Made by a program: the position numbers and the translations under genes
Notes under the pieces: model-generated
The model's input: only the letters and a program-made list of their open reading frames with translations
The model's database searches: none
Told to the model about the DNA's origin: nothing
DNA from: Escherichia coli
GTDB lineage: Bacteria; Pseudomonadota; Gammaproteobacteria; Enterobacterales; Enterobacteriaceae
Assembly: GCF_030013205.1 (NCBI RefSeq)
Contig: NZ_CP122648.1
Reading direction: 5' to 3' (one strand)
DNA: 64,000 nt
Shown here: positions 21,454 to 23,251 of the stretch, in pieces
How positions within the stretch are numbered: the first letter of the stretch is position 1
How the letters are laid out: the number at the start of each line of letters is the position of its first letter

Positions 21454-21858
21454 ATGTCAGTTCAACTAACTAGTGAGTCTTTAAATCAGTGGCTTAGTAT
21501 GAGTTCTCTTGCAGCAGTAATAGCTGGAGTACCTCCAGAAGTGGCGTTGGGTTCTTTGGCTGGTGCGGTAATTTTTGTTACCTCTGCTGTAGAATATCCA
21601 ATCCGCCGCCGGGTGCTCCTGTCGATGCTCAGCTTTCTTTGCGGTCTTCTCTTTTACAAACCAGCAGCATCAATTCTTATCGGCATAGCCACCCTGATCC
21701 CTACCATCACACAGGACTCTTTTGAGAAAGGGATTGTTTTCTCTGCTGGCGCATTCGTGTCAGCAATTGTCGCGGTGCGTGTTGGTATATGGCTCTACCA
21801 CCGTTCCGATAATCCACGCGAGTTAATTCCGGGGAGAAAAGACGATGGTAACGCATGA
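21454..21858 (+). CDS. Putative holin (multi-TM membrane protein)
   Basis: 134-aa hydrophobic ORF immediately upstream of endolysin. Confidence 0.5.
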   Translation: MSVQLTSESLNQWLSMSSLAAVIAGVPPEVALGSLAGAVIFVTSAVEYPIRRRVLLSMLSFLCGLLFYKPAASILIGIATLIPTITQDSFEKGIVFSAGAFVSAIVAVRVGIWLYHRSDNPRELIPGRKDDGNA

Positions 21859-22153
21859 GTTTTTTTTGCTTATCACCAATGCAGTTATTTGTACTGGTAT
21901 AGCAATTCGTGTTGTCACATTCCGGCGTAACGGTTCACAACACCGAAGATGGGGAGGGTGGCTTGCTTATTTCCTTATTGTTGCTGCGGCCAGTATTCCT
22001 GTTCGTGTCGTCTATGCAATCTGGTTATGCACGCCAATGGCTGTGGATTTATCTGAGGTCATTATCAACGCTGTCATGCTTGCTGCGGTTCTTAAAACTC
22101 GCGGTAACGTCGTTCAGATTTTCAAAATAACGAGGTCTAAACATGGAGATTAA
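21845..22153 (+). CDS. Second small membrane protein of lysis cassette (holin/antiholin-like)
   Basis: 102-aa hydrophobic ORF overlapping neighbours. Confidence 0.4.
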
Positions 22154-22772
22154 ACAATTCCAGCGAGCTGCTGGTATTAGCGAGGCGCTGGCCGCACGCT
22201 GGTTCTCGCATATAACTTCTGCTATGAAAGAGTTTGGTATCAGCAAACCAGAAGATCAGGCAATGTTTATTGCTCAGGTCGGGCATGAGTCTGGGGGCTT
22301 CACCAGATTGGAGGAGAATTTCAACTACAGTGTCAGCGGTCTGGCTAACTTCGTTCGGGCTGAGCGTCTCACTCAGGGGCAGGCTAATGCACTGGGTCGC
22401 CGTGCTGGTGAACCACCATTGCCACTCGAGCGCCAGCGAGCGATCGCCAATCTGGTGTACAGCAAACGCATGGGGAACAATTCCCCTGGTGACGGCTGGA
22501 ATTACCGAGGCCGTGGACTTATCCAGATTACCGGTTTGAATAACTATCGTGACTGCGGAAACGGCCTGAAAGTGGACCTGCTGGAGAATCCTGAACTGTT
22601 AGCGCGGGACGAATATGCGGCTCGTAGCGCGGCGTGGTTCTTCTCCAGCAAAGGTTGCATGAAGTATACCGGAGATATTGCACGTGTAACTCTGATTATC
22701 AATGGTGGCAGGAATGGCATCGACGACCGGCGCGCGCGCTATGTCACTGCCAGTAAGGTGCTGGCTGTATGA
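22143..22772 (+). CDS. Endolysin, glycoside hydrolase family 19 (chitinase-class lysozyme)
   Basis: Motifs [12 protein letters not shown] ... [16 protein letters not shown] typical of GH19 phage endolysins. Confidence 0.75.
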
Positions 22773-23251
22773 TCTGGGCATTCGTAAAATCATACTGGAA
22801 ACAGTTACTTATCATGGCGGTGCTTGCTGTTCTGGCCATATCCGGAGTTGTTGCCTGGAGTGTACACGGCAGTCGTCAGTACGACGCCGGGTATGCACAG
22901 GCGAAAGAAGACCGCAAAACCGAAGATGAGAGAGTTCGTCAGCACTACGAACAGGAGAAAGCGATCAATGAACGTGAAGCGCAGCAGAGGATCGACCAGG
23001 CGCGCAATGATGCTCTTGATGCTGCCGCTCGCACTGGCCGGTTGCAGCAACAGCTCGTTGCCATCCGTGAGCAGCTCAGGCACTATAACGCCATTGTCGG
23101 CGCTGGGTCGTCAGCCGCAGACACCGGAGTTTTGCTTGCCGACGTGCTCAGCAAATCTCTCGAGAGAAACAGACAACTGGCAGAGTATGCTGACCGGGCA
23201 GCCGAAGCCGGAAGAGTCTGCGAAACACAGTACGACACCCTGACCAGATAG
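22769..23251 (+). CDS. Rz-like inner-membrane spanin (i-spanin)
   Basis: N-terminal TM helix then charged coiled-coil region; overlaps endolysin stop. Confidence 0.65.
23007..23243 (+). CDS. Rz1-like outer-membrane lipoprotein spanin, embedded in the +1 frame of the Rz-like gene
   Basis: [15 protein letters not shown]... lipobox LAGC, Pro-rich; entirely inside the Rz ORF. Confidence 0.5.
   Translation: MMLLMLPLALAGCSNSSLPSVSSSGTITPLSALGRQPQTPEFCLPTCSANLSRETDNWQSMLTGQPKPEESAKHSTTP

Follow-up and report, generated by a model that had tools for sequence, protein, structure and literature searches.

Five overlapping lysis genes, all of them intact, occupy positions 21454-23251 of the window, the 64,000-nucleotide stretch of Escherichia coli DNA analysed here, according to the list of open reading frames and to family profiles. 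Their coordinates, along with those of the surrounding features, are collected in Table 1. A sequence-only reading of the same DNA had described a complete cassette composed of two membrane proteins, a GH19 endolysin and an i-spanin with an embedded Rz1, and this description holds, with five intact open reading frames and matches in Pfam and PHROG.

Table 1. Features of the lysis cassette, its upstream region and the prophage that carries it (window positions).
Feature	Position	Strand	Remarks
Deletion scars	4711-5836	+	p55-like regulator runs at 4989/4990 into the capsid gene, of which the 3' third is left; further junctions at ~5735 and ~5835
BRO-N antirepressor (Ant-like)	16307-16999	-	intact; phrog_130 3.5e-51
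Antirepressor C-terminal-domain homologue	18145-18402	-	85 aa; phrog_450 1.4e-47; phrog_1760 anti-repressor 4.5e-7
LexA-box-like CTGTATATTTATACAG	18424-18439		22 nt 5' of the small antirepressor-like gene on the minus strand
Tailspike	18598-20967	+	789 aa; phrog_1640 7e-147; intact
O-antigen acyltransferase remnant (conversion gene)	21088-21297	-	69 codons; divergent from the lysis cassette
17-bp dyad ATCACCTCACGGGTAAT	21334-21350		104 bp 5' of the first lysis gene and 37 bp 5' of the divergent acyltransferase remnant
Conserved CATATATGGTTT motif	21382-21393	+	start of the lysis leader; core invariant in 8 GenBank phages
Leader hairpin	21388-21444	+	just 5' of the first lysis gene's ribosome-binding site
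Membrane protein (putative holin or holin partner)	21454-21858	+	134 aa
Holin (putative)	21845-22153	+	102 aa; 14-nt overlap with the upstream gene
GH19 endolysin (predicted)	22143-22772	+	209 aa
Rz i-spanin	22769-23251	+	160 aa; start overlaps the endolysin stop (ATGA)
Rz1 o-spanin	22968-23243	+	91 aa; ATG start; preceded by GGAG
attR core attgagtgggaatgatt	23361-23377		prophage end; sequence read directly
Terminator-like hairpin and T-run	23403-23430	+	in host DNA; first one 3' of the cassette

The first of the two membrane proteins matches Phage_holin_8 (PF16931, 8.9e-12) and phrog_198 (holin, 4.4e-40), has about three transmembrane domains as judged by hydropathy, and is a homologue of epsilon15 gp23 and of phiV10 p27, having the same length as the latter and 92% identity to it. 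The second, with three hydrophobic segments and a basic C-terminus, matches Phage_holin_3_7 (PF05449, 1.6e-27) and phrog_217 (holin, 2.1e-34) and is 83-95% identical to its phage homologues. Both proteins have the attributes of holins, in that they are small, contain transmembrane domains, end in a charged C-terminus and are encoded next to an endolysin, and their Pfam scores exceed the cut-offs. A literature search found no experiment on either membrane protein of this phage group. The product of the first gene is considered a putative holin or holin partner, and the predicted holin activity may be assigned to one or both of the membrane proteins.

The third gene encodes a predicted soluble, holin-dependent GH19 endolysin. 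It scores 37.4 bits against PF00182 (cut-off 25.5), matches phrog_181 (endolysin, 1.4e-91) and can be aligned, from residue 1 to 208, with the SPN1S endolysin, whose structure is solved (4OK7, E=2e-115), with conservation of HE(49)...E(58), in which E49 and E58 form the catalytic glutamate pair of GH19 (residue roles from PMC12329726). The maximum 19-residue hydropathy of 0.57 indicates a protein without a signal or SAR domain. A distant relative is PaGH19Lys (PDB 9EOI, E=5e-32), the GH19 enzyme of the Pseudomonas aeruginosa pyocin cluster, which acts in the lysis function of that cluster (PMC12329726). The window enzyme resembles both of these proteins in being GH19, lysozyme-like and provided with the HE...E motif, and in its predicted solubility and holin dependence. 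With regard to the differences, the SPN1S endolysin is ~81% identical and the activity of the window copy is predicted from its sequence, while the relationship to PaGH19Lys is distant.

The last two genes encode the spanin pair. Rz matches DUF2514 (2.8e-42) and phrog_312 (Rz-like spanin, 3e-58) and has a single N-terminal transmembrane domain at residues 14-32, with a hydropathy peak of 2.51 and no other such segment. Rz1, for which there is no Pfam match, is recognised by phrog_11621 (Rz-like spanin, 2.6e-40) and is 96% identical to phiV10 p30a. Its gene lies wholly inside that of Rz in the +1 frame, with an offset of 199 nt, and covers 0.41-0.98 of its length. The signal sequence (...LPLALAG/CS) contains the lipobox LAGC, with a serine at +2 and two further cysteines in the protein, and both the embedded reading frame and the lipobox, as L(A/V)GC, are kept in six relatives. 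To disrupt the outer membrane, Rz needs its periplasmic coiled-coil domains, and the C-termini of Rz and Rz1 must interact; in the window pair, cysteines are located at C151 of Rz and at C56 and C60 of Rz1, in a charged, helix-prone sequence. The RefSeq PGAP annotation of this genome lists four coding sequences at the cassette, with Rz1 absent, and the gene that it missed is correctly recovered here.

The spanins of epsilon15, phiV10, TL-2011b and SPN1S belong to the 'Bcep176' families, whose embedded architecture has been catalogued, and a span of 0.41-0.98 is in the typical range (Kongari et al. 2018, PMC6139136). An embedded Rz1 is thus what the catalogue gives for this very spanin family, and not a special trait. 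As in lambda Rz/Rz1 and in the 'Bcep176' families (PMC6139136), the o-spanin is fully contained in the i-spanin in the +1 frame and covers ~0.4-1.0 of it, an N-terminal transmembrane domain is present in the i-spanin, the o-spanin has a lipobox and an outer-membrane sorting residue, and both partners carry periplasmic cysteines. However, sequence similarity between the window pair and lambda Rz/Rz1 is not detectable, the window pair representing a different family (DUF2514) with a longer mature Rz1 of about 66 aa.

All five genes are equal in length to those of the plaque-forming phages phiV10, epsilon15, SPN1S and ZX5 (Uetakevirus), with an amino-acid identity of 77-96%. At the DNA level, the cassette is 88% identical to phiV10 and 82% to epsilon15, and among the Uetakevirus relatives the identity ranges from 82 to 95% across 92-99% of the region. 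The same five genes, with the same order, overlaps and lengths, are present in phiV10 (p27-p30a, NC_007804.2), epsilon15 (gp23-gp26 and Rz1, NC_004775.2), SPN1S, TL-2011b and vB_EcoP_ZX5, where they likewise follow the tailspike and conversion genes and adjoin the att site; the order tailspike, conversion gene, cassette and att is common to the prophage and to phages phiV10 and epsilon15. These cassettes also have the leader motif in common, and the upstream dyad is common to phiV10, epsilon15 and SPN1S. In contrast to these phages, the window cassette resides in a prophage without packaging genes, head genes and most tail-protein genes, its neighbouring conversion gene is reduced to a remnant, and its leader hairpin allele is weaker.

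The host of the cassette is a Uetakevirus prophage of ~29 kb at the 3' end of guaA in the porcine E. coli strain ETEC4079, to which the sequence is 100% identical. At the 3' end of guaA, phiV10, epsilon15 and ZX5 have the core sequence found here at attR (PMC9782041), and guaA and the integrase gene are located at the opposite end of the prophage. The prophage had been called packaging-defective, which is confirmed by blastn against phiV10 and by the PGAP pseudogenes, as both terminase genes, the portal and the protease are gone. Three internal deletions account for the loss of terS, terL, portal, protease, about half to two thirds of the capsid gene (N-terminal part) and most tail-protein genes. 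The first joins window position 4990 to phiV10 position 6905 in the blastn alignment, and the two others correspond to phiV10 7652-9587 and 9689-10977, with loss of the p12-p14 homologues and of most of the tail protein p15, of which the last ~190 aa remain. PGAP annotates four pseudogenes in this deletion-scarred prophage. Of the p55-like regulator, about 93 codons are left, with phrog_536 matching residues 1-94 only, and the acyltransferase remnant matches residues 1-50 of the 372-position profile phrog_3333 (1.6e-6), its phiV10 counterpart being the full 338-aa oac. The internal-virion/ejection genes (6388-14269) and the DnaT-like and P-like replication genes are intact. In the tailspike, the N-terminal particle-binding domain is conserved and the receptor-binding part divergent, DNA similarity to phiV10 being confined to the first ~650 nt of the gene. 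The region 21454-23251 is very probably an ordinary lysis cassette of the epsilon15/phiV10 type (Uetakevirus), situated at the attR end of a decaying prophage, and nothing points to a new function.

The further proposal that the remnant could behave as a tailocin-like module is not supported, since this is a short-tailed phage without sheath or tube genes, in which the portal and the p14 homologue have been lost and the p15 homologue is truncated. No sheath or tube families were found among the remaining prophage reading frames. Because the portal and the genes for the RefSeq 'tail proteins' (p14 and p15 homologues) are lost or truncated, the tailspike is left without anything to assemble on. 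The persistence of lysis genes in virion-defective elements is well known from the essD-ybcS-rzpD/rzoD genes of the E. coli prophage DLP12 and from the hol-lys genes of the R/F-pyocins. These DLP12 and R/F-pyocin loci are fixed across a species and their phenotypes have been measured. They resemble the window cassette as a holin-endolysin-spanin set in an element incapable of forming infectious virions, but the latter is confined to a near-clonal lineage, is part of an element that is still decaying and has no tail-sheath/tube module beside it. The lysis genes of the pyocin cluster are also dealt with in PMC12329726. The cassette is, in short, already known biology, and a new role for it is unsupported.

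Upstream of the cassette, the operator-like site that had been noticed at 21335-21349 is the core of the 17-bp dyad. The motif ATYACC-N5-GGTRAT has nine matches in the window against 0.30 expected (30-fold), eight of which fall within the prophage, and nine in phiV10 against 0.26 expected. Three tandem copies of the dyad are found at window positions 222-286, between the repressor and cro-like genes of the immunity region, and the same dyad upstream of gp20 is annotated as a repressor-binding site in the RefSeq record of epsilon15, the regulatory annotations of this phage being those of GenBank records. The dyad before the cassette is a predicted repressor-type operator. In TL-2011b, ZX5 and a Klebsiella phage, where the gene ahead of the cassette has the same orientation, no such dyad is present at this place, so that in the prophage it could be part of the divergent conversion gene and not of the lysis unit.

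A composite element, GGTAAT-N20-45-CATATNTGGTT, precedes both the tailspike gene and the cassette in the window, and in phiV10 it precedes the virion, tailspike and lysis units, with 0 occurrences expected by chance. The leader that follows can fold into a hairpin, and the epsilon15 record annotates an RNase III site at the homologous position. When 28 distinct leaders were analysed with RNAalifold, the consensus contained 19 pairs, 5 of them with compensatory changes, although the covariation is modest (term -0.62) and these changes come mostly from one divergent leader type. The phiV10 allele reaches -31.8 kcal/mol (z = -6.1); the window allele, at about -17 kcal/mol (z = -0.74), is no more stable than shuffled sequence and is the weakest of 36 distinct alleles. 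Given this z-score, the structure is claimed for the family and not for the window allele. Decay of the hairpin since the prophage became defective was considered as the origin of this weakness and rejected as unproven, since a hairpin just as weak (-17.1 kcal/mol) is found in ZX5, which is viable. An Rfam scan of positions 20900-23500 (E<=1) gave no match. Furthermore, a sigma-70 consensus scan found no promoter on the + strand of the 156 bp that separate the acyltransferase remnant from the first gene (21298-21453), which means that the promoter of the cassette may need an activator; the sole + strand match, at 20948-20977, spans the stop codon of the tailspike gene.

The circuit that could control these elements appears to be in place. 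In the source genome, the gene for the prophage repressor is undamaged and encodes 194 aa with two HTH motifs. The LexA-box-like site before the small antirepressor-like gene occurs at the same place in epsilon15, and the phrog_450 family that recognises this gene product also matches residues 147-228 of the BRO-N antirepressor. In ZX5, overexpression of the BRO-N homologue promoted lytic growth, and overexpression of the repressor lowered the holin and endolysin transcripts by >99.9% (PMC9782041). A sequence of events can be proposed in which the repressor would silence the lysis unit in the lysogen by binding to the dyad, and DNA damage would strip LexA from its box and allow the expression of the antirepressor, which in turn would release the operators and derepress the cassette. 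The five overlapping genes would then be transcribed as one unit from the 156-bp intergenic region. As far as the families involved can tell, one or both of the holin-family proteins would build up in the inner membrane until holes form, the soluble GH19 muramidase would escape through them and cleave the peptidoglycan, and the complex of Rz in the inner membrane with the outer-membrane lipoprotein Rz1 would finally break the outer membrane. SOS-inducible lysis is plausible on these grounds, and the chances lean slightly towards a remnant that is still able to lyse its host on induction.

Conversely, the cassette could be a silent relic, with an intact sequence that is no longer expressed at lytic levels due to the truncated late regulator and a compromised lytic-cycle transcription, and that is harmless and invisible to selection. 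The p55-like 'transcriptional regulator' lies ahead of the late genes in phiV10; it has lost its C-terminus here and is absent in the sister strain K_EC180, and if the late genes depended on it as their activator, the cassette could be silent. The missing consensus promoter in the intergenic region and a leader hairpin that is degraded relative to the phage alleles point in the same direction, and the carriage of a non-lethal remnant is easily explained. However, the p55-like regulator has no Pfam match, so its role as a late activator is a guess, and the hairpin of ZX5 shows that a viable phage can do with an equally weak one. Moreover, the replication genes, the repressor and the antirepressors are intact, as is the module of dyad and CATATNTGGTT before the cassette, which matches that before the tailspike gene. 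Overall, such silencing seems unlikely.

With regard to the retention of the cassette, the prophage is found in five decay states, a different one in ETEC4079 and in each of four sister strains. Its structural region has been altered by differing deletions or by an inversion, and the block from tailspike to Rz persists in every strain along with the regulatory circuit. This pattern, together with the operator directly before the cassette and the LexA-controlled antirepressor, could suggest that the cassette, the tailspike and the regulatory genes (antirepressors and direct repressor control) form a selected device for SOS-inducible self-lysis in a pig-pathogenic lineage, whose virion genes are free to decay. 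Such a device might release toxins, DNA or vesicles, and would be comparable to the P. aeruginosa pyocin cluster, in which the GH19 relative has exactly such a role (PMC12329726), and to the lysis genes of E. coli DLP12. Nevertheless, the strains are near-clonal and several of the deletions are nested, which leaves a small number of deletion events that do not count as independent. Among the five strains, the lysis genes are separated by 0-1 nt, for which reason selection is not measurable within the lineage, and both substitutions found in the lysis genes of ETEC4068 change an amino acid. Across E. coli genomes there is no excess of the cassette, detected in 564, over head-gene fragments of this phage type, detected in 736; like the near-identity of the lysis genes in five decay states, these counts favour a neutral retention. 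Inducible lysis without phage progeny would also be nothing but a cost as long as no benefit is demonstrated, and we regard selection for self-lysis as very unlikely. Nothing shows a selective retention of the cassette as opposed to its simply not yet having been reached by decay; most likely, it is intact since the deletions in the head, packaging and tail region are recent and ongoing and have yet to extend to it.

Were the self-lysis device real, the late units of Uetakeviruses would be switched directly by the immunity repressor and not by a late activator, and a cassette both inducible and selected would add one more case of prophage-derived self-lysis in a pathogen, which is a known theme. 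Beyond annotation, the importance of the locus is small, and it lies in a Uetakevirus prophage whose decay can be seen at several stages, which differ from strain to strain. As a separate observation, repressor-type dyads and the CATATNTGGTT motif are found before every late unit, in addition to a long leader hairpin, and these elements could guide a small study of late-gene regulation in Uetakeviruses.

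Four close-packed open reading frames, overlapping consecutively by 14, 11 and 4 nt, occupy positions 21454-23251 on the + strand of the window, and a fifth of 91 codons, preceded ten bases upstream by its own GGAG, lies in the +1 frame entirely within the 160-codon frame. Their Pfam and PHROG matches, together with the features that follow, show that the sequence-only reading, which listed two membrane proteins, a GH19 endolysin and an Rz with embedded Rz1, was right in every particular. In both membrane proteins, about three segments are hydrophobic, and the C-terminus is charged. 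The endolysin, with no hydrophobic stretch at its N-terminus, matches the solved SPN1S endolysin 4OK7 (E=2e-115), with alignment of the catalytic HE...E motif, whose residue roles in GH19 enzymes have been described (PMC12329726). Rz has a single, N-terminal transmembrane domain, and the N-terminus of Rz1 carries a lipobox for signal peptidase II, followed by Ser at +2.

This arrangement has already been described for Uetakevirus, the genus of epsilon15/phiV10-type temperate podoviruses. Over a 2-kb region, the DNA shares 88% identity with phiV10, 82% with epsilon15, as much as 95% with other phages of the genus and 100% with porcine E. coli chromosomes. Each of the five lysis genes is exactly as long as its counterpart in phiV10 and epsilon15, with protein identities of 77-96%, and the embedded lipoprotein frame is kept in all six relatives examined. 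Kongari et al. 2018 assigned the spanins of epsilon15, phiV10, TL-2011b and SPN1S to two families, one of i-spanins and one of o-spanins, that take their names from Bcep176; a typical embedded o-spanin occupies 0.4-1.0 of the i-spanin length, the same span that Rz1 occupies here. The records of phiV10 and epsilon15 both annotate Rz1; PGAP did not call it in this genome, and this is the only annotation gain. Cassette copies 95% or 88% identical are also found in two large lytic-phage records, PP488543.1 (BP9, 138 kb 'Vequintavirus', where an integrase follows the copy) and PP350014.1 (PH444, 115 kb), probably chimeric assemblies with prophage DNA.

In the porcine strain ETEC4079, the element extends from guaA and the integrase to an attR core, after which the host gene yfgI comes next. 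Alignment to phiV10 mapped three internal deletions, and a 1.6-kb query across their junctions matched only ETEC4079 (NZ_CP122643.1). The loss of terS, terL, portal, protease and the 5' two thirds of the capsid gene bears out the earlier view of a packaging-defective prophage. Still intact are the integrase, repressor and replication genes, the two antirepressor-like genes, and the genes for the tailspike and for the internal-virion/ejection proteins, among which one has an SLT domain. Next to the cassette, phiV10 carries a complete oac gene; here the O-antigen acyltransferase has shrunk to its first ~69 codons, possibly with a short hydrophobic C-terminal fragment. The receptor-binding part of the tailspike also differs from that of phiV10, which suggests that the conversion gene was destroyed in a module swap.

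A 242-aa gene inserted between the two antirepressor-like genes, and absent there in phiV10, encodes a protein whose C-terminal part weakly resembles endonuclease VII and Lar-like zinc-ribbon proteins. The RefSeq name 'exodeoxyribonuclease VII large subunit', given to the phiV10 p19 homologue in ETEC4079 and ETEC1748, is almost certainly a naming error for an internal virion protein. Just beyond the prophage, host yfgH (a glycine-zipper 2TM lipoprotein) is split by IS1; it is intact in ETEC4068 and P15-25.

Features of the prophage and its surroundings (window positions unless marked phiV10)
Feature	Position	Strand	Details
Lysis gene 1, 134 codons		+	Phage_holin_8; holin phrog_198
Lysis gene 2, 102 codons		+	Phage_holin_3_7; holin phrog_217
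Lysis gene 3, 209 codons		+	GH19; endolysin phrog_181
Lysis gene 4 (Rz), 160 codons		+	DUF2514; Rz-like spanin phrog_312
Embedded Rz1	22968-23243	+	Rz-like spanin phrog_11621
attR core	23361-23377		attgagtgggaatgatt
Deletion	4989/4990		phiV10 39045 joined to 6905; also lost: last ~19 codons of p55-like 'transcriptional regulator'
Deletion	~5735		phiV10 7652 joined to 9587; lost: p12-p14 homologues, 5' part of p15
Deletion	~5835		phiV10 9689 joined to 10977; lost: internal part of p15; C-terminal ~190 codons left
p19 homologue	10023-11720	+	phrog_3003
BRO-N antirepressor	16307-16999	-	phrog_450
242-aa gene	17395-18123	+	phrog_6762
85-aa protein gene	18145-18402	-	phrog_450
LexA box	18424-18439		CTGTATATTTATACAG; 22 nt upstream of 85-aa protein gene
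Acyltransferase remnant	20964-21297	-	
IS1	~24422-25120		
yfgH fragments	~24026-24367, ~25126-25320		flanking IS1
Dyads	222-238, ~239-255, 270-286, 2571-2587, 2633-2649, 16225-16241, 17266-17282, 17359-17375, 18478-18494, 21334-21350		~239-255 read by eye, outside search hits
Composite	18489-18533, 21345-21392		GGTAAT, 20-45 nt, CATATNTGGTT
Composite, phiV10	3262-3318, 20887-20931, 24702-24749		same pattern
Leader hairpin	21388-21444; phiV10 24744-24803		

The same prophage is found at guaA in four sister strains, with a structural region that shows one larger deletion (K_EC180), a truncated portal with an intact capsid gene (ETEC1748), partial portal and capsid genes with loss of the ejection genes (ETEC4068) or an inverted structural block (P15-25, O139:H1). 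Across window 4141-14832, the sister loci differ by nested deletions and one inversion splitting a DUF1064 gene, so that these five near-clonal pig strains, ETEC4079 included, present five states of one prophage, a snapshot of stepwise decay. The lysis genes of the sister strains are identical or differ in two genes by a single substitution each, which changes an amino acid; suggestive as this looks, the set is near-clonal, shares some deletions and lacks the sequence divergence by which selection could be measured. Of the complete E. coli genomes, 736 hold fragments of head genes from this type of phage, more than the 564 that hold the cassette. The simplest reading is that decay is recent and ongoing and that the 1.8-kb cassette has so far escaped it.

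A tailocin-like role, also proposed from the sequence alone, is unsupported: this podovirus remnant has no sheath or tube genes, and the portal and annotated tail-protein genes are missing, which leaves the tailspike and ejection proteins without an assembly platform. The closest true parallel lies in the P. aeruginosa pyocin cluster, whose lysis cassette likewise has a GH19 endolysin; that locus has a complete tail module and a demonstrated function. The defective prophage with an intact cassette stands, whereas nothing supports a special module.

The operator-like site at 21335-21349 proved real: it forms the centre of a 17-bp dyad, ATCACCTCACGGGTAAT, and belongs to a regulatory module that recurs. 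The consensus ATYACC-N5-GGTRAT has nine matches in the window (0.30 expected), eight of them within the prophage, and nine in phiV10 (0.26 expected). A dyad precedes almost every prophage transcription unit; in epsilon15, the one upstream of the tailspike gene is annotated as a repressor-binding site. With three in tandem between the repressor and cro-like genes, the immunity repressor may directly control the late, tailspike, antirepressor and lysis units. A composite of the dyad, 28-31 bp and CATATNTGGTT, with 0 expected by chance, precedes the tailspike and the lysis cassette, and in phiV10 (gap 28-40 bp) also the virion operon, and looks like a shared Uetakevirus late-promoter or leader module. 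Since relatives with a co-oriented upstream gene lack the dyad and keep CATATATGGTTT, the dyad may act on the divergent conversion gene no less than on the lysis unit.

In a lysogen, the repressor would occupy the dyad. The neighbouring BRO-N antirepressor has a C-terminal domain to which the 85-aa protein is homologous, and the near-consensus LexA box upstream of the gene for this protein, also found in epsilon15, suggests that SOS induction may run through this small antirepressor, whose synthesis would release the operators and so relieve repression of the cassette. When the repressor of phage ZX5 was overexpressed, holin and endolysin mRNA fell by >99.9%; the BRO-N protein of the same phage promoted lytic growth (PMC9782041). 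Following the well-established holin-endolysin-spanin pathway, the holin(s) would form membrane holes, the soluble GH19 muramidase would then be released, and the Rz/Rz1 complex would finally disrupt the outer membrane. Counting against inducible lysis, no consensus sigma-70 promoter was detectable for the cassette and the p55-like protein, a possible late regulator, is truncated. There is a slightly better than even chance that the remnant can still lyse its host on induction.

In most relatives, the leader carries a 22-25-bp near-perfect hairpin downstream of CATATATGGTTT, ending just upstream of the ribosome-binding site of the first lysis gene, at a position annotated in epsilon15 as an RNase III site. 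RNAalifold predicted 19 pairs from 28 distinct leaders, five of them with compensatory changes. Among 36 distinct alleles from the 80 collected loci, the strongest reaches -37.6 kcal/mol, that of phiV10 -31.8 kcal/mol (z = -6.1), and that of the window is the weakest (-17 kcal/mol, z = -0.74); the leader hairpin of ZX5, a viable phage, is equally weak.
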